A stretch of 40,660 bases of DNA, taken from positions 1-40,660 of the forward strand of contig WFTF01000047.1 in assembly GCA_015485575.1 (NCBI GenBank), written 5' to 3'. Each line of letters opens with the position of its first letter. Within the stretch, counting starts at the first letter, position 1. Both the position numbers and the translations under genes were made by a program. The notes beneath the pieces are model-generated. The model saw nothing but the letters and a program-made list of their open reading frames with translations. It made no database searches and was not told the DNA's origin. Positions 2,754-17,215 of this stretch are shown here, one piece after another. Source of the stretch: Patescibacteria group bacterium. Its GTDB lineage: Bacteria > Patescibacteriota > Minisyncoccia > Phycocordibacterales > UBA918.

Positions 2754-3422
2754 ATGGTACGAAACAAAGAAACATATAAGCAGGTCTTGGAATTTCGCAA
2801 GCGGGGCTTCACGTATGCGGAGATTGCAAAAATATGCGGTATTTCAAAAAGCACGGTGAGTAACTACCTCTCCAAAAAAAAGTTTTCCAAGGAAATAGCA
2901 AAGGAAAACGCACAGAAAGCGGCACGGGAGAATAAGAAGCGCATGAGACTGTTAAATAAAGCGCGTAAAGCCGAGCGCAACGCCCGCTATCGCGAGGCGT
3001 TGCGCTCGGCTGAGACCGAGTTTAAGCACTACAAGCATTCCCCGCTGTTTGTTGCCGGTTTATCGCTGTATATGGCGGATGGTGACCTTGGAGACACTGC
3101 ACGCATCCGGATGAGCAGTACCAATACGCAGGTGCATCGTATTTTTATACATTTTCTGCGTGATTTTCTGGGTATTGAGAGTACTCAGGTCACATTTGTG
3201 GCAACATTGTATACGGGCATGGACGAAAGTAGAGAAATGAAATGGTGGTCTCGTGCAATAAAACTATCAGTGCGGCATTTTGGTAAAACCCAGTTTTTGA
3301 AAACAGATAAGATCAACTCTCACCCCGCTACACATCATGGCTCAGGCAGTACGTTTCTGAATAACACCACCCAAAAGAAAAAACTGTTGCGTTGGATTCA
3401 GTTGATGCAAGCAGAGTTATAA
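2754..3422 (+). CDS. HTH + LAGLIDADG-like protein, paralog of 13894..14565
   Basis: 222 aa with an N-terminal HTH-like segment (GFTYAEIAKICGISKSTVSNYLS) and a single LAGLIDADG-like segment (LFVAGLSLYMADGDLGD). Hand alignment with the 223-aa ORF at 13894 works along its full length. Confidence 0.7.
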   Translation: MVRNKETYKQVLEFRKRGFTYAEIAKICGISKSTVSNYLSKKKFSKEIAKENAQKAARENKKRMRLLNKARKAERNARYREALRSAETEFKHYKHSPLFVAGLSLYMADGDLGDTARIRMSSTNTQVHRIFIHFLRDFLGIESTQVTFVATLYTGMDESREMKWWSRAIKLSVRHFGKTQFLKTDKINSHPATHHGSGSTFLNNTTQKKKLLRWIQLMQAEL

Positions 3423-3499
3423 GTCAAACGTATGGACTTACCGATGTAATTTGACCATTTACCCGAGATGGTGTTAAATACAGTACCGCACAAAATACA

Positions 3500-3570
3500 G
3501 CGGCCATGGTTAAGTGGTATAACGGGTCCTTGCCAAGGATCAGTCGGGAGTTCGATTCTCCCTGGCCGCA
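3500..3570 (+). tRNA. tRNA-Gly (anticodon GCC)
   Basis: Acceptor GCGGCCA/TGGCCGC, D stem GTTA/TAAC, anticodon loop TTGCCAA, T arm GGGAG-TTCGATT-CTCCC. No encoded CCA. Confidence 0.9.
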
Positions 3571-3575
3571 CCTAT

Positions 3576-3603
3576 AAAAAGTTCCCCGTCCGGGGAACTT
3601 TTT
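3576..3603 (+). terminator. Rho-independent terminator after tRNA-Gly(GCC)
   Basis: AAAAAGTTCCCCG-TC-CGGGGAACTTTTT. Confidence 0.8.
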
Positions 3604-3726
3604 ATAGGTTCGGTCGGGATCGTAGCTTTGTGAATACAAAGCGTTACGCGAATCGAAGGGCTTTTGTGCTAGTTTGTGAGACGGAGTCGATACAAAATAG
3701 CCAAAAGGCGTGCTGAAGCTGTAAGC

Positions 3727-3747
3727 TTCGATTCTCCCTGGCCGCAC
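3727..3747 (+). repeat. 21-nt direct duplicate of the 3' end of tRNA-Gly(GCC)
   Basis: TTCGATTCTCCCTGGCCGCAC occurs at 3551-3571 (in the tRNA) and again at 3727-3747. The second copy lacks the 5' half of the T stem, so it is not a functional tRNA. Confidence 0.85.
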
Positions 3748-3800
3748 GAGTACAAAATGAGCGCACGTCAGTGCGTCATTTTTGTTCATACAGGATTGGG

Positions 3801-3824
3801 AATTTAGGGGTCAGACCCCTAATT
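3801..3824. repeat. Palindrome family A, copy 1
   Basis: AATTTAGGGGTC-A-GACCCCTAATT. Related copies lie at 14730-14755 and 16655-16679. Confidence 0.85.
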
Positions 3825-3930
3825 AACAGATTTTGGTAAATGATATAGCATATATGCTATATAGTGTATCTTTTTGCATAGTTTTCTGGTAGTATAGCTT
3901 GGAATTCATATACATATGGAGGACACACAT

Positions 3931-4830
3931 ATGACAATGAAAAAAATCGTCCTCCCTGAGGGGGACAGTCAACGAGTTCTTTCCGCTGCACAGGGGATTT
4001 TGAATCAAGGTATTTGTCATCCGGTTTTGATCGGGGATGCTGCACATATTTGCGGTGAAATTGAAGCTCCTCTTGAGAGTTATACCGTGCTTGCGTCTGA
4101 CAGTACCGAGCTGGATCGGCTGCAAGCTGCAGCTGCAGCGAAAGGTAAAGAGCTTCGCGTTTCTGACGCATCTTTGGTACAGGGTGCTGCGTTGGTACGA
4201 GACGGGTATGCTGACGGCATTGTCGGTGGTGCTCAAACCGGAACGGATGAGGTCTTTTTGGCGTATATCAAGACTATCGGTGTGCATGAGGACGTTTCTC
4301 GTGTAACCAGCTGCTTCTTGATGGAAAAAGACAATCAGCGTTTTATTTTTGCCGATTGTGCACTCAATCCGGAATCCAACGCTTCGGAACTGGCAGAAAC
4401 GGCTTACCTGAGCGCTCAATTTGCAAAAACGGTGGGAATAGAAGAGCCTGTTGTGGCATTTCTGTCTTTTCAGACCGTTGGAAATGCGCCGCATGCGCTA
4501 ATGCAGCTTCCGCGTGATGCTGCAAAAATTGCACGTGAAACCTATGCACTGCGCGCAAACGGTCCCTTGCAGTTTGATGCGGCACTGTTGCCGGATGTTG
4601 CAAAGCGCAAGACCAAAGACTGTGACGTGGCTGGACATGCCAATGTCTTTATCTTTCCGGATCTTGAAAGTGGTAACATCGGCTACAAAATCGCCGAGCG
4701 TATGGGCGGGTTTACAGCAACAGGTCCCCTGTTTTTGGGCTTTAGAAAGCCCGCCTACGACCTGTCTCGAGGGTGTTCCGTAGAAGACATCATTTCGGTG
4801 GTGCGTATGGCGGTGCAGCATGCAGAGTAA
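3931..4830 (+). CDS. pta: Phosphate acetyl/butyryl-transferase family protein
   Basis: N-terminal IVLPEGDSQRVLSAAQ...HPVLIGD and C-terminal DLSRGCSVEDIISVV are typical of the PTA_PTB family. GGAGGA lies 7 nt upstream of the ATG at 3931 (the ORF opens at 3916). Confidence 0.8.
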   Translation: MTMKKIVLPEGDSQRVLSAAQGILNQGICHPVLIGDAAHICGEIEAPLESYTVLASDSTELDRLQAAAAAKGKELRVSDASLVQGAALVRDGYADGIVGGAQTGTDEVFLAYIKTIGVHEDVSRVTSCFLMEKDNQRFIFADCALNPESNASELAETAYLSAQFAKTVGIEEPVVAFLSFQTVGNAPHALMQLPRDAAKIARETYALRANGPLQFDAALLPDVAKRKTKDCDVAGHANVFIFPDLESGNIGYKIAERMGGFTATGPLFLGFRKPAYDLSRGCSVEDIISVVRMAVQHAE

Positions 4831-4849
4831 CCATCTTTACGGTGAGATA

Positions 4850-4877
4850 AAGGGCGTTTCTCATGAAACGCCCTTTC
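4850..4877 (+). terminator. Terminator after the pta-like gene
   Basis: AAGGGCGTTTC-TCAT-GAAACGCCCTTTC. Confidence 0.7.
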
Positions 4878-5432: not shown

Positions 5433-5843
5433 ATGGCAACAGGTAGTAAGAAAAATACCAAGAAAATAGGAGATTTGGGTGAAAAAATTGCTCAAAAATA
5501 CTTGCATGATAGTGGGTTTGTTATAGTTGGTACCAATTTCTGGAGGAAGTGGGGTGAAATTGACATTATTGCAAAAGATAAACAGGGAGTGTTGCGTTTT
5601 GTTGAAGTAAAATCCGTTTCATATGAAACTATCACAGACCTGGAATACGCAGTTACACATGAAACTTGGCAACCTGAGGAACAGGTACACGCACGTAAAC
5701 TTCGTCAGATAGAAAAAACCATTGCCTCATGGATCACGGAACAGAGTTACGATGGTTTATGGCAGATTGATGTACTTGCCGTGAAGATGGTTATCCCCGA
5801 AAAGTATGCATCGGTTTCGTTTATTGAAAATGTTGTGCAGTAG
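5433..5843 (+). CDS. yraN: YraN-family (UPF0102) endonuclease-like protein
   Basis: 136 aa with GDLGEKIAQKYL...GEIDIIAKD...LRFVEVKS, the typical YraN pattern. Confidence 0.8.
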   Translation: MATGSKKNTKKIGDLGEKIAQKYLHDSGFVIVGTNFWRKWGEIDIIAKDKQGVLRFVEVKSVSYETITDLEYAVTHETWQPEEQVHARKLRQIEKTIASWITEQSYDGLWQIDVLAVKMVIPEKYASVSFIENVVQ

Positions 5844-6548: not shown

Positions 6549-7472
6549 ATGATCACACATTATTTTAAAACTTTGAAAGATGACACATTGAAAGAGGTTG
6601 ACACCATTCGCACCGGTGTTTGGACTCATGTAGTGGCGCCAACAAATGAAGAGCTGTCGGAAGTTATTGAGATGTATGGACTTGATGCTTCTATCGTGAC
6701 TGATATTCAAGATTTTTTTGAGGTGCCGCGCGTGGAAAAGGCGGGAAGTGCTACCTACTTTTTTACCCGCTATCCCTATGATGAGACTGATGAAGATATT
6801 GATACCGCACCCATTTTAATTGTTATGGGGGAGTCGTTTGTGGTAACGGTATCTCCGCGTGAAATTCCCCAGTTTCATACGTTTATATCGGGGAAAGTGG
6901 ATATCAACACAACACAAAAAGCCCGATTTTTTATTCAAATTATGCACATGTTGACGCAGTCGTTTGAAAGGGAGCTTGTGCGATTGCGTAAATCGGTACA
7001 CAGCAATAAAGCTCGCTTGCGCAGTATCAGCAACCGAGACATTGAGCGGTTGGTGAACTATGAACATGAGCTCAACGACATGATTGCGGCCGTTATCCCC
7101 ACGAACACTTGGTTGCAACAGGTCACCACCGGTAACTACATACAGTTGTTCGCTGAAGATGTGGAGATGATGGAGGATCTTATGATTGCAAACAGTCAGC
7201 TGGTTGACTCGGCACGATCAGTACTGAAAACCATTCAAAATATTCGTACTGCAACGGAGTCTATTCTCGCAAATAAGCTAAACGCGACCATGCAACGCCT
7301 TACCATCTTCACTATCATTCTCACTATTCCGACGGTAGTGGCATCCCTGTATGGAATGAACGTACTTTTGCCGATGGCGGAAAATCCCTTTGCATTCTGG
7401 ATGGTCCTTATCATTATTGTGATATTGGTGGTGGGTGTGGTATTTATTTTCAAAAAAAGCAGATGGTTGTAG
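6549..7472 (+). CDS. corA: CorA-family Mg/Co transporter
   Basis: YGMNV (GMN) motif followed by two C-terminal TM helices. The ORF opens at 6420. In-frame ATGs lie at 6507, 6522 and 6549, and I chose 6549 by typical CorA length only. Confidence 0.8.
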   Translation: MITHYFKTLKDDTLKEVDTIRTGVWTHVVAPTNEELSEVIEMYGLDASIVTDIQDFFEVPRVEKAGSATYFFTRYPYDETDEDIDTAPILIVMGESFVVTVSPREIPQFHTFISGKVDINTTQKARFFIQIMHMLTQSFERELVRLRKSVHSNKARLRSISNRDIERLVNYEHELNDMIAAVIPTNTWLQQVTTGNYIQLFAEDVEMMEDLMIANSQLVDSARSVLKTIQNIRTATESILANKLNATMQRLTIFTIILTIPTVVASLYGMNVLLPMAENPFAFWMVLIIIVILVVGVVFIFKKSRWL

Positions 7473-7500: not shown

Positions 7501-7527
7501 AACCTAGGTCATTCAATGACCTAGGTT
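7501..7527. repeat. Palindrome family B, copy 1
   Basis: AACCTAGGTCATT-C-AATGACCTAGGTT, with 13-bp perfect arms. The second copy is at 34219-34249. Confidence 0.85.
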
Positions 7528-7573
7528 GCGTCGGAGAGGGGTAGAGTAGGGTAGAAAAAGAAAAAAAGAAAAA

Positions 7574-8179
7574 ATGAAAAAACAAGTATTTTATATTCAT
7601 GGGGGAGAGGCATATCAAACGTATGACGATTTTTTGTCTGATTTACGGCAAAAACCACTACGTTCACCGCAGGGGGTTACTCCACCCTTATGGTACCAGA
7701 CACTCAGGGACGACTTGGGCGACGAGTATGAAGTATTTACTCCCCAAATGCCCAATAAGCAAAATGCACAGTATCAAGAGTGGAAAATATGGTTTGAGAG
7801 ACACTTTGCATTCCTGCGCGACAATGTGATTTTGCTGGGTTGGTCACTGGGGGGTATCTTTCTTGCGAAATATCTCTCGGAAAATGAACCGCCGTTTTAT
7901 GTGGACAAGTTGATACTGATGGCAGCACCATTTTACACCGAAGAGCTGACTGATATTTGCTGCGGTGATTTTGTGTTGGATCCGGAATCACTCGCCTTGT
8001 TGCCGCAAAAAGTGGGGCGGATTGTGTTACTGCACTCAAAAGACGATTTTGTGGTGCCGTATGAACATGCGTTGCTATACCAGCGTATTTTTATTACCGC
8101 CTCACTTTTATCGTTTGACGATAAGAATCATTTTTTACTTGAAAAGCTTCCTGAAGTGGTGAGGGTTATCACCGAGTAG
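7574..8179 (+). CDS. Alpha/beta serine hydrolase (YdeN/RBBP9-like)
   Basis: 201 aa with a GWSLGG nucleophile elbow and the size and layout of small serine hydrolases. Confidence 0.65.
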   Translation: MKKQVFYIHGGEAYQTYDDFLSDLRQKPLRSPQGVTPPLWYQTLRDDLGDEYEVFTPQMPNKQNAQYQEWKIWFERHFAFLRDNVILLGWSLGGIFLAKYLSENEPPFYVDKLILMAAPFYTEELTDICCGDFVLDPESLALLPQKVGRIVLLHSKDDFVVPYEHALLYQRIFITASLLSFDDKNHFLLEKLPEVVRVITE

Positions 8180-13893: not shown

Positions 13894-14565
13894 ATGACAT
13901 ATCCGGAATTAAAACAGAAAGCAATTCGCTTACGGAAAGATGGCTATTCGTATAGTATGATTTCTGAAAGACTATGTGTATCCAAAAGCACGTTACACTA
14001 CTGGTTGTCAGAAATACCCTATACAGCAAATGATGAGGTACGCCAAAGAATCGGAGAGGCGCGTGCGCGCTCGGGAGAGGTAAAACATCAGCAAAAACTT
14101 GAAACGTTTCGCCAATCGGCAAAACAGGCGAAAAAGGATATAGGTACTTTGTCGCAACGTGATTTGTTTATGCTTGGGTTGGGGATTTATATTGGAGAAG
14201 GTGAGAAAGGTGAGGTGATTGGGGTGATTAACTCTGACCCGCGTATTATTGTACTTATGATGCGGTGGTTTATGGAGGTGTGTGAGTTGAAAAAAGATAA
14301 CTTTTCAATTGCCATTCATCTATACCCCGATAACAACCAAAAACAGTGTTTGCAGTTTTGGTCTGAGGTAACCGGATTGCCACAGGCACAGTTTGGTAAA
14401 ACTCAGATTGACCGCCGGCGAAACAAAAAACAAGGAAAGCGAGGGAAGTTACCATATGGAACGGCGCATTTGCGTGTAAAGAGCAACGGACAGAAGGAGT
14501 TTGGTGTACTGTTGGCACGCAGAATTCATGCGTGGATGAAACTTGTGTTAGCGCACAAGATTTGA
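13894..14565 (+). CDS. HTH + LAGLIDADG-like protein, paralog of 2754..3422
   Basis: 223 aa with HTH-like GYSYSMISERLCVSKSTLHYWLS and LAGLIDADG-like LFMLGLGIYIGEGEKGE. The gene ends 16 nt before tRNA-Gly(UCC). Confidence 0.7.
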   Translation: MTYPELKQKAIRLRKDGYSYSMISERLCVSKSTLHYWLSEIPYTANDEVRQRIGEARARSGEVKHQQKLETFRQSAKQAKKDIGTLSQRDLFMLGLGIYIGEGEKGEVIGVINSDPRIIVLMMRWFMEVCELKKDNFSIAIHLYPDNNQKQCLQFWSEVTGLPQAQFGKTQIDRRRNKKQGKRGKLPYGTAHLRVKSNGQKEFGVLLARRIHAWMKLVLAHKI

Positions 14566-14581
14566 TATAAATGTGTGCACC

Positions 14582-14652
14582 GCGGGATTAGTTAAGTGGT
14601 ATAATGCGACGCTTCCAACGTCGAGTCAGGAGTTCGATTCCCCTATCCCGCA
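14582..14652 (+). tRNA. tRNA-Gly (anticodon UCC)
   Basis: Acceptor GCGGGAT/ATCCCGC, anticodon loop CTTCCAA, T-loop TTCGATT with one A-C mismatch in the T stem. No encoded CCA. Confidence 0.8.
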
Positions 14653-14704
14653 CAAAGGAAAACTACCGCCTTCGGGCGGATTTTTCTTTGTGCGGGATAG
14701 GGGG
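14640..14704. repeat. Inverted repeat that includes the tRNA-Gly(UCC) 3' end
   Basis: CCCCTATCCCGCACAAAG (14640-14657) pairs perfectly with CTTTGTGCGGGATAGGGG (14687-14704). An inner CCGCC-TTCG-GGCGG hairpin is followed by TTTTT. Confidence 0.8.
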
Positions 14705-14720: not shown

Positions 14721-14757
14721 TTTTTTAAAAATTTAGGGGTCGGACCCCCTAAATTAA
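14721..14757. repeat. Left direct repeat of the island (palindrome A, copy 2)
   Basis: TTTTTTAAAAATTTAGGGGTCGGACCCCCTAAATTAA. The near-identical copy is at 16647-16681. Confidence 0.85.
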
Positions 14758-14840
14758 CGTCTTGTACTTTCCGGTTGTGTTTTTCTTTTCTCTATCAGTT
14801 TGAAAATTCCAACAAACTGAATTGAAATTCTCAAAAGATA

Positions 14841-14863
14841 GGACGAGCCAAATAGGCTCGTCC
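14841..14863 (-). terminator. Terminator of the 412-aa ORF
   Basis: On the minus strand: GGACGAGCC-TATTT-GGCTCGTCC followed by TATCTTTTGAG, 10 nt after the stop codon. Confidence 0.65.
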
Positions 14864-14872
14864 AATTGATAC

Positions 14873-16111
14873 TCAGGCCGCCGACTTCTGCGCGGTGTGG
14901 CATCGATAGAGTTTCATCGCCACGTTCCGAACCAGGCTGTACTCCAGATGCGGAATCAGCCACATTGCTGGAATCCACCGACGATCAGACCAGCCACGTT
15001 CCCGCAACCACGACTCGGTCCCTGCCGAGCAGTTACCGGCACGGTAGCTGTCCTCTCGGATGACCAGCGGGCAGAACCCGTGTTCGCCGTTGAGGAAGCC
15101 GACGAGGTCAGCGTGTTTCGCTACCAGTTCGTCTTGGCGTTTCCATGCGCGAAGCGCTTCACGAAGCGCTTCGCGTGGGCCACCCCAGTTGCTGTGGTAC
15201 GTCCGACCGTTGGTCGAGCGAACCAAGAACTGGAAATCGACGCCGATCTGATGGCCACGCCGACTCATCTGGGGGATGGCGATGCGGAACACCTCCGTTC
15301 CCAGCTTCACCAAGCGCGGCTCCTCCTCGCGGCGAGATTCGACTCCGTCACTCTCGTCGGCCACCTTGCACAGGTGGTAATCAACGAGCCATTCGCGCGC
15401 CTCTCGGTAGCTCCTGAAGTGGGAGTTCCCGGAGAGCGAGATCGCGGTGGCGATGACAGCGGCCTTGCCCGCCTGGTCGGTGATCATTAGGGCCTGAGCG
15501 ATGGACGCCCAGGAGGGCTTCTGCCCCTCGAAGGCACGCAGGATGGTCTCGGCGCGGTGTTTCACCTTCCAGAGTTTCCGCTCGAGCTTACCCGGCGATG
15601 GGTTACGCGCGGCGAAGTCCCACAGGTGCAGCGTGGTGCGACGAGCCCACATGCCGCGAGAAGACTGGGTCTTCTCGACTACCTTGCGGACGCCGTACAG
15701 ATCGGCAGCGGCTTTGAGCCAGCCGCAGAACCGCTGCACCTTTTTCACGACCTTCTCCGCACCTGCGCGACTGGCGTAGCGCGGGTAGCTGCCGGGCGCC
15801 ACGTTGGCGTTCACCATGTTCTCGATATTCCATGGGATGTTGGTGAACCCGGAGTCCTCGACTGCCCGGTGAACCAGATCGGAGAGGTGCGACCAGTCAA
15901 TGGTCACACCATCCCCCTGGAAATACTCCTTGTCAGTGATGGGGCACTGGAAGCGTCGAAAGGAGGAGCGTCGGACATAGCGCTCCTCGTAAACCGCCTC
16001 ATCGGCGATTTGTTTGAGGGTCATAGACCCGTCAAGGCCGTAGTCCGCGTCGGTGGCGGACATGATAAGGTGCTGGCGACGGGTGGTGTTGGTGTAAGCG
16101 TTCAGTGACAT
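14873..16111 (-). CDS. Hypothetical 412-aa protein of unrecognised family, with G/C-biased third codon positions
   Basis: It is the longest ORF in the G+C-rich segment. GAGGAGG lies about 5 nt upstream of the ATG. G/C-ending codons (CTG, GGC, CGC, ACC, AAC, ATC) are strongly preferred, unlike neighbouring genes. Confidence 0.75.
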   Translation of the reverse strand: MSLNAYTNTTRRQHLIMSATDADYGLDGSMTLKQIADEAVYEERYVRRSSFRRFQCPITDKEYFQGDGVTIDWSHLSDLVHRAVEDSGFTNIPWNIENMVNANVAPGSYPRYASRAGAEKVVKKVQRFCGWLKAAADLYGVRKVVEKTQSSRGMWARRTTLHLWDFAARNPSPGKLERKLWKVKHRAETILRAFEGQKPSWASIAQALMITDQAGKAAVIATAISLSGNSHFRSYREAREWLVDYHLCKVADESDGVESRREEEPRLVKLGTEVFRIAIPQMSRRGHQIGVDFQFLVRSTNGRTYHSNWGGPREALREALRAWKRQDELVAKHADLVGFLNGEHGFCPLVIREDSYRAGNCSAGTESWLRERGWSDRRWIPAMWLIPHLEYSLVRNVAMKLYRCHTAQKSAA

Positions 16112-16545
16112 TTGTCCTCCTCGGGCACTCGTTTGTGGCCCAATTGAAGTTGGTAGAGCGCGAGCGCATCAAGTGCGCTCAATGGGGTGTTTAACGTCCA
16201 GGAGGTCAGAACCAGACGGGAGTGTAGATACTCCACACCAGCTTTGACTAATCAAAGCCAAAGTGGAATATCTACGTTCCGTCCTATGCCTAAGTATCAA
16301 ATTGTAAAGAACAAACTATTCGTCCTTGTTTTTTCGCAAGGACATTAACGGGCACAAACGATGGTCCGATTCGTTTGTGTCCGGTATATGTCCGAACGAA
16401 TATTGTTATTGGAGGAACTGACTGCAACACATTGCTACTTGAGTCAAAACGTTTGTAACCAGGTATGAGTTTATGCAAGTGAGGAATCGCAATCATTTTG
16501 TACCTGCCAACAGTTTTTTCAGGTACCTCACTACAGAATATTGTA
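16112..16545 (-). ncRNA. Long structured 5' leader or candidate ncRNA upstream of the 412-aa ORF
   Basis: Hairpins are a 24-bp interrupted rod at 16215-16284, a hairpin at 16162-16180, a hairpin at 16351-16382, a terminator-like hairpin at 16322-16343 and a hairpin at 16500-16526. The consensus promoter lies just upstream. Confidence 0.45.
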
Positions 16546-16552
16546 TTTTTCG

Positions 16553-16581
16553 ATTATATCATATATACAGTATTATGTCAA
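16553..16581 (-). promoter_or_regulatory. Consensus sigma-70 promoter (TTGACA - 17 nt - TATAAT) firing toward the 412-aa ORF
   Basis: The minus strand reads TTGACAtaatactgtatatatgaTATAAT, with the -35 at 16576-16581 and the -10 at 16553-16558. Confidence 0.6.
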
Positions 16582-16646
16582 TCTATTGTACGGTATCACC
16601 CAAAATGCAACAGGGTATTCTATGAAAAGAAAGAGATGTGCGCATG

Positions 16647-16690
16647 TTTTTTATAATTTAGGGGTCCGACCCCTAAATTACCCCTAAATT
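16647..16690. repeat. Right direct repeat of the island (palindrome A, copy 3, plus an extra half-arm)
   Basis: TTTTTTATAATTTAGGGGTCCGACCCCTAAATTA followed by a tandem CCCCTAAATT. Confidence 0.85.
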
Positions 16691-16740
16691 ATAAATTACG
16701 AGTGTGGTGTGTGCGTGTTTTTTGGGCTGTGTGACATAAA

Positions 16741-16942: not shown

Positions 16943-17215
16943 TTATTTCACCGCGTCTTTGAGAGCTTTTGCCGCTCGGAACTTTGGTACACGCATTGCC
17001 GGCACTTCAATCGGTTCACCGGTTCGTGGATTGCGCGCGGTGCGCGCGTTGCGCATTTTTGCTGAGAAAATACCAAGTCCCGCGATTGATACCTCTTGAC
17101 CTGCCTTAAGGGTCTCAACGATAGAAGTCATCATAACTTCTACAGCGCGCTCAGCGTCAGCTTTTGTAATCCCGAGTTCCTCGTGGATTTTGTTAATGAT
17201 GTCTGCCTTATTCAT
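16943..17215 (-). CDS. hup: HU/IHF-family DNA-binding protein
   Basis: 90 aa, MNKADIINKI...GLGIFSAKMRNARTARNPRTGEPIEVPA, the canonical HU arm. Confidence 0.95.
   Translation of the reverse strand: MNKADIINKIHEELGITKADAERAVEVMMTSIVETLKAGQEVSIAGLGIFSAKMRNARTARNPRTGEPIEVPAMRVPKFRAAKALKDAVK

Follow-up and report, generated by a model that had tools for sequence, protein, structure and literature searches.

Between hup and a gene for tRNA-Gly(UCC), contig WFTF01000047.1 of a Patescibacteria group bacterium (assembly GCA_015485575.1) carries a G+C-rich segment with a single open reading frame (ORF), which encodes a protein of 412 residues. The window that was analysed is the whole stretch of 40,660 nucleotides (40.66 kb) of this contig; W denotes the copy of the gene found in it, L-numbers denote homologous or related loci, and approximately 15 independent loci with DNA were examined. 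A preliminary description, made from the letters of the window, considered the segment to be foreign, unusual and undescribed, and in this it was right; the distinctive features reside in the RNA. The gene belongs to a rare, undescribed family with a folded messenger RNA (mRNA), a structured leader and, in relatives of the window copy, hammerhead ribozymes; no description of this combination of gene and RNA turned up in the literature searched. The RNA features escaped the preliminary description, i.e., a helix that closes the 5' and 3' ends, the hyper-structured coding region present across the family and the hammerheads of the relatives. The anatomy of the window copy, in the order of transcription, is as follows.

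16553 to 16581, minus strand: consensus sigma-70 promoter (TTGACA, a 17-nt spacer, TATAAT and an upstream TG; 12 of 12 positions)
16305 to 16546, minus strand: window-specific structured extension of the 5' leader, not conserved in L002, L006 and L028
16112 to 16304, minus strand: conserved structured leader, in the order 5' box, P0, CUCC, P1, UUAAA, P2, GCGCUCUACC and Shine-Dalgarno sequence
16304 to 16288, minus strand: 5' box of the leader
about 16273 to 16226, minus strand: long leader hairpin P0, of 20 bp
about 16218 to 16195, minus strand: leader hairpin P1 with a GACC loop, preceded by CUCC and followed by UUAAA (UWAAA across leaders)
about 16180 to 16162, minus strand: leader hairpin P2
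about 16161 to 16152, minus strand: GCGCUCUACC, the (G)CUCUACC element that follows P2
16122 to 16116, minus strand: Shine-Dalgarno sequence GAGGAGG
14873 to 16111, minus strand: ORF of 412 residues, of an orphan family, with hyper-structured coding RNA
14865 to 14880, minus strand: 3' box (GCCTGAGTATCAATTG), over the TGA stop codon and complementary to the 5' box
14841 to 14863, minus strand: hairpin like an intrinsic terminator (GGACGAGCC-TATTT-GGCTCGTCC, then TATCTTTTGA), right after the 3' box
14758 to 14840, minus strand: 3' spacer, at the place where relatives have a conserved hairpin and a type III hammerhead, with none detectable here

The protein had no match in Pfam, PHROGs, NCBIfam or PADLOC, and none in the PDB by profile; none of the weak Pfam matches was consistent across 27 members of the family, and none appeared in ten longer members. 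A word-indexed search among 5.8 billion proteins retrieved 31 homologues, and a hidden Markov model (HMM) scan of 1.84 billion representatives gave 415 clusters (at 50% identity, all from uncultured bacteria), while the family profile matched none of the GTDB genomes. The AlphaFold2 model, built from 27 sequences, is a confident one, with a predicted local distance difference test (pLDDT) of 86 and a predicted template modelling score (pTM) of 0.69, and a Foldseek search with it gave no significant match, the best E-values being 0.11 in the PDB and 0.021 in BFVD, with template modelling (TM) scores normalised by query length of at most 0.18. Sequence, profile and Foldseek searches thus place the protein in no known family. 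A phage or plasmid origin was also rejected, given that tblastn found no homologue among INPHARED phages or PLSDB plasmids and that IMG/VR returned one distant protein match (L010, 24% identity) and no match for either RNA motif. The invariant polar residues include N95, D252, D255, R303 and H306; N360 and C361 are nearly invariant, and E366, D327 and D354 are conserved among the closer homologues only. The invariant and nearly invariant residues, together with the conserved motifs KTQSxRG, VADxSDGV, GRTYHS, AWKRQD and REDSYxAGNCxxGTExW, suggest an enzyme, of a fold that could not be assigned. No partner gene is conserved across the loci; in L006 and L013 the gene is solitary, in variable regions beside toxin-antitoxin (TA), NYN, DUF3800 and SNase genes. 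A 90-residue gene beside the L015 copy, considered as a possible hup that would indicate shared synteny, was rejected. The suggestion of a defence-type system made in the preliminary description gained no support; PADLOC found no match to known anti-phage defence systems and there is no conserved partner gene. In L002 (positions 7018 to 7020), and also in L003 to L005, L016 and L017, an in-frame TAA was observed at codon 340, where the other members have Phe or Tyr in a GFCPL motif; past the TAA of L002 the frame stays conserved for 65 more codons, up to the 3' box, and the stop is present in several independent assemblies. It indicates either a recent pseudogene or read-through.

The ORF was correctly described beforehand as a single one preceded by a long structured leader, and the proposed combination of a promoter, a structured RNA and one unknown protein was also borne out. 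The promoter is of the sigma-70 type, and the L002 and L006 copies are preceded by comparable ones. Counted from the predicted start, the 5' untranslated region (UTR) measures 447 nt, and its folding energy is -144.3 kcal/mol, that of its shuffles -109.6 +/- 5.9 (z -5.9; here and below, folding z-scores were obtained with 8-15 shuffles per sequence). The last 190 nt or so before the ATG are kept in L002, L006 and L028, whose proteins are 46-64% identical to that of W, and hairpins P1 and P2 were recovered in seven independently folded leaders (W, L002, L006, L028, L027, L015 and L029). P2 is made of a different self-complementary sequence in six lineages and P1 shows two positions with compensatory changes. 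No family of Rfam 15 was recognised in the leader or in the 3' region; the leader gave hairpin matches at the level of chance only, and it contains no tandem repeats. Two conserved elements, CUCC immediately before P1 and CCUC within its loop (16195 to 16225, minus strand), are complementary to the GGAGG of the Shine-Dalgarno sequence (16116 to 16122). The region of the Shine-Dalgarno sequence is paired in the minimum free energy (MFE) fold calculated for the UTR, and pairing with either element could act as a translational switch. The UTR extension of approximately 240 nt is specific to the window lineage. It contains, just before the conserved leader, a terminator-like hairpin (16321 to 16344, minus strand; TGTCCTTGCGAAAAAACAAGGACG followed by AATAGTTTGT) that could serve as an attenuator.

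Another characteristic feature of this family is the way in which the whole mRNA is folded. In the MFE fold of the 1450-nt unit of W, nt 7-23 pair with nt 1433-1448, and the pair formed by the 5' and 3' boxes includes a U.G wobble; the same pairing is a perfect inverted repeat of 14 nt in L002 and is maintained with sequence changes in L028 and L006. Conservation runs on outside both boxes, which speaks against these being the ends of a transposon. The unit of W has an MFE of -649.6 kcal/mol, as compared with -570.9 +/- 9.7 for its shuffles (z -8.1), and the units of L002, L006 and L028 have z-scores of -12.3 to -12.8. Within the coding sequence (CDS) alone, 11 homologues gave z-scores of -5.5 to -27 against dinucleotide shuffles, and ten of them gave -3.7 to -22 against synonymous-codon shuffles, L032 having been compared with dinucleotide shuffles only (z -10.0). 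The excess amounts to 10-37% of the MFE in the first comparison and to 7-36% in the second. Ten control genes, neighbours on the same contigs as the homologues, showed values of -2.2 to +1.7; the synonymous-codon shuffles and these controls rule out that the hyper-structure is an artefact of composition, codon usage or method. The sense strand exceeds the antisense strand in stability, by 33-114 kcal/mol, and in G.U pairs in ten of the 11 homologues, and this stronger excess on the sense strand of the relatives argues for selection on the RNA. The structure consists of many local hairpins with short loops, with a median pair span of 22-39 nt, in addition to the closing helix. Two other possibilities were rejected, i.e., a coding-region structure conserved by position, given that at most 14% of the MFE pairs are common to homologues, and a rod-like fold, given that only 6-9% of the pairs lie on the rod diagonal. 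A near-perfect palindrome of 28 nt (CGCGAAGCGCTTCGTGAAGCGCTTCGCG, 15148 to 15175) encodes the peptide repeat REALREALRA and illustrates how one and the same stretch of this gene both codes and forms a hairpin.

A type III hammerhead is tied to the gene in five other lineages. In L002, L006, L012 and L028 it is located 50-80 nt past the stop codon or the 3' box (L017 represents the same hammerhead locus as L002), L006 has an additional one approximately 390 nt before the gene, and the only one of L018 is likewise upstream, about 1.7 kb from the gene, on a contig that ends before the 3' side of the gene. All of these hammerheads score below the Rfam gathering cut-off of 48.5 bits (30-45 bits, E 3e-7 to 1e-2). 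The 3' module, a GAGGAGC hairpin followed by the hammerhead, is 87% conserved among four loci whose proteins are approximately 45-50% identical to the W protein. At the terminator position, L002, L006 and L028 have a hairpin of different sequence that is complementary within each copy, and in W terminator-like hairpins sit where relatives have the hammerhead. A decayed hammerhead was considered for the W spacer (CAAACTGATAGAG...GGAAAG, minus strand, around 14795 to 14770) and found no support from the family-specific model R1, which gives only 7.8 bits there, with an E-value of about 6.

The sequences that flank the gene in other loci deserve a separate description. In L030 the gene lies between direct repeats of approximately 115 nt (150 to 270 and 1810 to 1930), each made of a hairpin (GGGAGGAGC...GCUCCUCCC), then CCAUUUGAG, an insert and UUUNAAAUGGG. 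This CCAUUUGAG...AAAUGGG motif, which belongs to no Rfam family, was also observed 5' of the gene in L027 (around 1230 to 1330) and in L013 (around 4750 to 4860). Occupying the place of the hammerhead module, it is a candidate processing element or ribozyme. Direct repeats flank the gene in L006 too; their sequences are unrelated to those of L030 and they include the ribozyme. L006 is an array of small genes on the same strand (NUDIX, NYN, RhuM, MOSC, DUF3800 and SNase) separated by repeated intergenic elements (3047 to 3176, 5557 to 5611 and 7307 to 7361, and repeats at 5639 to 5754, 7522 to 7586 and 8043 to 8158), two or three hammerheads among them; this locus resembles a cassette array. 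A circular contig of unit length was sought in L032 and L033 and rejected; both are linear and have a different leader, and L032 has no terminal overlap.

The composition of the segment deviates from its surroundings, as was anticipated in the preliminary description. The core at 14.9-16.1 kb is a G+C outlier (0.62 versus 0.47) and the sole stretch of the 40.66 kb that exceeds the mean by 2.5 standard deviations; in 300-nt windows the values are 0.60-0.66 over 14900 to 15950 and 0.35-0.52 in the flanks. The gene itself has a G+C content of 0.617 over the whole ORF and of 0.77 at third codon positions (GC3), versus a GC3 of 0.44-0.54 in six neighbouring genes. The same tendency was found in the eight other homologous loci measured, where the gene lies 2-19 G+C points above the rest of the locus (5-19 points in seven of the eight, 1.9 in L029). 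An assembly chimera is ruled out because L001, an independent ENA assembly and twin of the W locus, is collinear with W at 98.8-99.9% through both junctions of the island, which the two assemblies share; leader and promoter show no mismatch in 589 nt. The chimera check proposed beforehand is answered in this way.

The one related genome recovered, a possible counterpart of an empty site, is L026 ('MAG: bacterium isolate Co_bin.11'), where the order is RNase Y, PDT, hup, hairpins, tRNA-Gly(UCC) and a trypsin-like gene that is 67% identical to its counterpart in W. Neither the 412-residue gene nor the gene for a 223-residue helix-turn-helix (HTH) protein is present there, and hup directly precedes the tRNA gene with no insert. 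The empty site that the preliminary description proposed to look for would hold tRNA-Gly, one palindrome and hup; in L026 the two genes are adjacent, the palindrome is absent and, according to blastn, the tRNA gene of W is inverted relative to L026. The boundary obtained from this comparison is approximate. On the hup side the homology between W and L026 stops at 16738, i.e., 43 nt past the right repeat. From the gene order of L026, the end of homology and the inversion of the tRNA gene, it follows that the region is remodelled and that the G+C-rich gene is extra DNA, with insertion ends that the alignments leave undefined. The elements that surround the gene in the window are the following.

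13894 to 14565, plus strand: gene of the 223-residue HTH protein, directly upstream of tRNA-Gly(UCC), absent from this place in L026
14582 to 14653, plus strand: intact tRNA-Gly(UCC) (ARAGORN; Rfam tRNA, 64.5 bits)
14681 to 14703, minus strand: inverted copy of the tRNA-Gly 3' end (CCCCTATCCCGCACAAAG...), in the orientation of the whole tRNA in L026
14721 to 14757: palindrome copy ii (TTTTTTAAAAATTTAGGGGTCGGACCCCCTAAATTAACG), terminator-like on the minus strand (stem, then AAATTTTTAA)
16647 to 16695: palindrome copy iii, extended by a further half-arm in tandem (two copies of ACCCCTAAATT)
16696 to 16738: window-specific spacer, as seen in the alignment with L026, whose homology resumes at 16738 and runs into hup
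16943 to 17215, minus strand: hup, reached by the L026 homology
2754 to 3422: gene of a 222-residue HTH paralogue (21% identity, E 1.6e-11 to the 223-residue protein), directly upstream of tRNA-Gly(GCC)
3500 to 3572: tRNA-Gly(GCC)
3801 to 3823: palindrome copy i (AATTTAGGGGTCAGACCCCTAAT), behind tRNA-Gly(GCC) and with no adjoining island

The preliminary description rightly placed the segment directly after tRNA-Gly(UCC); palindrome copy ii is 68 nt from this gene. It also reported two near-identical repeats that bracket the segment, the right one with a half-arm, and both observations were confirmed: aligned in direct register, 14722 to 14748 and 16647 to 16673 have a match of 89% across 27 nt, and the half-arm ACCCCTAAATT is in tandem at 16669 to 16691. 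Both copies form the hairpin AATTTAGGGGTC-S-GACCCCTAAATT, and the same two sites also read as a perfect inverted repeat of 19 nt. Their orientation is ambiguous because they are palindromic, "direct" being one of the readings. Copy iii is outside the predicted transcript because it is located upstream of the promoter. The palindrome core has three matches in the 40.66 kb, a number that no dinucleotide shuffle gave and of which about zero are expected by chance; all three copies are intergenic, near the tRNA-Gly loci or the island of this one contig. Since the third copy is at 3801 to 3823, the repeat is not confined to the edges of the island, and neither L026 nor any of the 32 other loci has it, the twin L001 excepted. 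The proposal that these repeats are the ends of an element was not sustained, in view of this third copy, of homologous loci that lack the palindrome and of an L026 homology that stops elsewhere. Judging from the loci compared, the palindrome is not a feature of the 412-residue gene family; the repeats are probably not the signature of the element, and together with the tRNA they would represent local context.

On its right side copy ii has the same flank as copy i (TTAAC), and on its left side the same flank as copy iii. The inverted copy of the tRNA 3' end is 17-23 nt long and 27 nt away from the intact tRNA-Gly(UCC); 14640 to 14662 and 14681 to 14703 form an inverted repeat of 23 bp around the tRNA terminator hairpin (14666 to 14679). 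At the other locus, the 3' end of tRNA-Gly(GCC) is repeated in direct orientation at 3727 to 3748, 155 nt downstream of the gene. Because the HTH paralogue, a tRNA-Gly and the palindrome recur at 2754 to 3830, one module is present twice in the window, formed by an HTH gene, a tRNA-Gly gene, a terminator, a tRNA 3' fragment, a hairpin with a T-run and the palindrome. Copy ii looks like a part of this recurring module, and the module at 2754 to 3830 resembles a scar left by integration or homing at a tRNA gene. The palindrome could equally be an attachment (att)-like site, with copy i unoccupied, or a terminator or repetitive extragenic palindromic (REP)-like element of this genome.

From the anatomy and the statistics described above we infer, on sequence grounds, how the transcript may be processed, circularised and bound by the protein, where it may end and which biological role it may have. 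The interpretation that we tentatively prefer, at a little under an even chance, sees in the segment between hup and the tRNA-Gly(UCC) gene a self-contained module of RNA and protein that was acquired horizontally and belongs to an undescribed family. The sigma-70 promoter (16581-16553, minus strand) precedes a predicted transcript of approximately 1.7 kb, whose conserved core (16304 to 14865, approximately 1.44 kb) is closed by the helix between the 5' box and the 3' box that overlaps the stop codon. The hairpins P0, P1 (with its GACC loop) and P2, followed by CUCUACC, form the conserved set of the leader, and the coding region is filled with local hairpins far beyond what composition, protein sequence or codon usage call for. 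The RNA itself may be a functional product beside the protein, i.e., a compact, nuclease-resistant molecule with defined ends. In relatives, the flanking ribozymes would release an RNA of unit length with 5'-OH and 2',3'-cyclic phosphate ends that may be ligated to a circle. The 412-residue protein probably has its own RNA as a target, to bind or to act on, most likely at P1, and the Shine-Dalgarno sequence could be masked by CUCC and CCUC. In W, where the ribozyme is absent, intrinsic terminators would set the 3' end, and the bracketing palindromes of 35 nt would be a small family tied to the tRNA-Gly genes of this genome and not a part of the module.

A more far-reaching version of this interpretation, which we regard as improbable, takes the chromosomal loci as master copies of a bacterial element that acts at the RNA level, and W as a derivative without ribozyme. 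A transcript of about 1.45-1.75 kb would be excised by hammerheads or by motifs of the CCAUUUGAG...AAAUGGG type (L030, L027, L013), the 5'/3' helix would hold its ends close to each other, and a host ligase would convert it into a nuclease-resistant circular mRNA. This RNA and its own novel-fold protein would then make up a particle that persists or spreads at the RNA level, and the element would be a DNA-anchored counterpart of the coding viroid-like RNAs.

Several observations weigh against the RNA-protein module. The gene is at one and the same locus in all five near-identical assemblies, hence there is no sign of recent mobility, and the differences between W and L001 (six synonymous and eight non-synonymous codons) are so few that purifying selection cannot be shown. 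L032, the closest homologue other than the twin (70% identity), has a different leader, which makes the leader a trait of a subfamily, and it shows no sign of circularity. Four loci, those with a type-A leader, are the only ones in which the 5'/3' box stands out clearly, duplexfold being uninformative on this pairing for loci with other leaders. The window copy is also the exception in the strand comparison, its sense strand being no more stable than the antisense (-554.7 versus -551.8), its structure z-scores are the second-weakest of the family after those of L027, and it has no hammerhead (Rfam at E<=10 on 14740 to 14880). Besides, two flanking elements precede the predicted promoters, namely the hammerhead upstream of the gene in L006 and palindrome iii in W. 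Given its weak structure signal and the lack of a ribozyme, W may be a decaying or domesticated copy.

The explanation that competes most directly with the RNA-protein module, which we consider possible though doubtful, is an ordinary horizontally acquired orphan gene, for instance for a toxin, a defence function or a surface interaction, with a cis-regulatory 5' UTR. The palindromes would then be REP-like or terminator hairpins of the host, the mRNA structure would tune stability or translation, and the hammerheads of the relatives would be generic elements for processing of operons or 3' ends. This fits the normal promoter, Shine-Dalgarno sequence and terminators, the dispersed palindromes, a position that is stable among near-identical assemblies and the solitary occurrence in variable regions of L006 and L013, with TA, NYN, DUF3800 and SNase genes as neighbours; moreover, hammerheads are known between bacterial and phage genes (PMC3088659). 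However, it does not account for synonymous-shuffle z-scores that are strong in ten homologues, from hosts of 38-56% G+C, and unmatched by the ten neighbouring controls, nor for a G+C content above that of every host (by only 2 points in L029). A hammerhead-hairpin module that keeps 87% conservation beside proteins of only about 45-50% identity to that of W, and a helix that closes the whole mRNA, are likewise unexpected for a plain accessory gene.

Two explanations at the DNA level were also weighed. In a miniature integrative element, which seems to us an unlikely origin, a palindrome close to tRNA-Gly would have served as the att site for the integration of a circle of approximately 1.9 kb through site-specific recombination; palindrome ii would now represent attL and palindrome iii attR, copy i (3801-3823) the unoccupied paralogous site, and the recombinase would be either the 412-residue protein, with a new fold, or the neighbouring HTH protein acting in trans. 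Repeats that bracket foreign DNA, the island-free third copy behind the other tRNA-Gly, L026 without the insert, tRNA 3'-end fragments at both tRNA-Gly loci, the foreign GC3 and the direct repeats that bracket the gene in L006 and L030 are all consistent with it. Yet the palindrome is missing from 32 other loci, the twin L001 excepted, the repeats of L006 and L030 are unrelated in sequence, with a ribozyme among those of L006, the sharing of palindrome flanks misfits a simple attB/attL/attR scheme, the homology of W with L026 stops 43 nt past the repeat, and the protein has no recombinase or nuclease signature. The sense-strand hyper-structure and the conserved leader would also be left unexplained. 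A transposon similar to an insertion sequence (IS) is very improbable. Its terminal inverted repeats would be the boxes (TTGATACTYARG / CYTRAGTATCAA) and its transposase the unrecognised ORF; inverted repeats of 13-16 bp do coincide with the edges of the G+C-rich core, and the right repeat contains the stop codon, an arrangement found in many IS elements. Conservation nevertheless extends beyond the boxes, to TGTTCTTTACAA upstream and, downstream, to a variable hairpin and then the conserved AAAGGTTTGAGGAGC... hammerhead module; there is no match to a transposase family and no target-site duplication, no genome with multiple copies was seen, and the U.G wobble of the box pair in W suits pairing at the RNA level.

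When compared with described systems, the segment fits no known family. As stated in the preliminary description, no integrase, transposase or relaxase is recognisable in it, its sole ORF having no Pfam, NCBIfam or PHROG match. The ORF has no reverse transcriptase (RT) domain, as a retron would, the leader lacks the tandem repeats of a type III toxin-antitoxin system, neither a transposase match nor a target-site duplication points to an IS or transposon, the whole-length rod fold of Obelisks and viroid-like RNAs was not found, and W has no flanking ribozymes of the retrozyme kind. Retrozymes and other eukaryotic circular-RNA elements flanked by hammerheads (PMC4918200, PMC7229834) share with this family, in L006, genomic copies with type III hammerheads in direct repeats around a unit of approximately 1-2 kb, a highly structured RNA and a transcript that would be cut to unit length with ligatable ends. 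Retrozymes are eukaryotic, non-coding and dependent on a retrotransposon RT, whereas this family is bacterial, encodes a 412-residue protein and has no RT; most of its copies, W included, have one ribozyme or none. Coding viroid-like RNA replicons, such as Obelisks and the zeta-like and ambivirus-like RNAs (PMC10827157, 10.64898/2026.09.16.752053), resemble it in having a small (1-2 kb), heavily paired RNA, a protein of novel fold and, sometimes, type III hammerheads; in contrast to these RNA-only circles and rods, the family has chromosomal DNA, a sigma-70 promoter and local hairpins with a closing helix. Hammerheads in intergenic positions of bacterial gene arrays, with a presumed role in transcript processing, were reported previously (Perreault et al. 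2011, PMC3088659), and those described here are likewise intergenic and next to bacterial genes; that study reported no specific partner protein family, conserved leader or hyper-structured coding region.

The likeness to islands targeted to tRNA genes consists of foreign DNA beside a tRNA gene with a tRNA 3' fragment nearby; unlike these islands, the segment has no integrase, the fragment is inverted and lies by the intact tRNA instead of at the far end of the island, and the bracketing repeat is palindromic and not tRNA sequence. The mRNAs of the hok type are about 400 nt long, encode a small toxin, have an antisense partner and fold back by 5'-3' pairing. A long-range 5'-3' helix in a stable, compact mRNA is common to both (in hok, 3' processing is thought to control translation), whereas the size of approximately 400 nt, the small toxin and the antisense partner are not seen here. 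Genome-scale ordered RNA structure (GORS) is a property of RNA viruses and single-stranded RNA phages, i.e., of replicating RNA genomes. The folding excess described here is similar to GORS in that it covers the whole coding region, is achieved through synonymous sites and is not conserved by position; it differs in that it occurs, as a large excess, in a bacterial mRNA encoded in DNA.

If the RNA-protein module is confirmed, these loci would provide a new protein fold family with no relative detectable by sequence or structure, and a bacterial gene family under strong selection at the RNA level. Synonymous-site selection for generic RNA structure is known mainly from persistent RNA viruses, and to our knowledge no bacterial gene family has been described whose whole coding region is selected so strongly in this way. 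The recurrent link with type III hammerheads and with the leader would suggest that one functional product is an RNA whose ends are defined and which may be circular; together, these features would offer an experimental handle on why bacteria keep hammerhead ribozymes and on whether DNA-encoded counterparts of the coding viroid-like RNAs exist. Even if the segment were no more than an accessory gene whose mRNA is extremely stable, its leader and its protein would still be new targets for structure-function studies.

One of the neighbours of the segment, the HTH protein of 223 residues encoded directly upstream of tRNA-Gly(UCC), has an N-terminal HTH_23 domain and a motif (LGLGIYIGEGEKG) that resembles LAGLIDADG. 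An identity as a LAGLIDADG protein was unsupported by the Pfam and PDB sequence searches, which matched the HTH only. The family of HTH proteins of approximately 222 residues to which it belongs shows 53-72% identity and is widespread in Patescibacteria, a distribution that points to this group as the probable host of the segment, and it often occurs on very short contigs; its sources include Kaiserbacteria, Nomurabacteria, Yonathbacteria and Paceibacterota.

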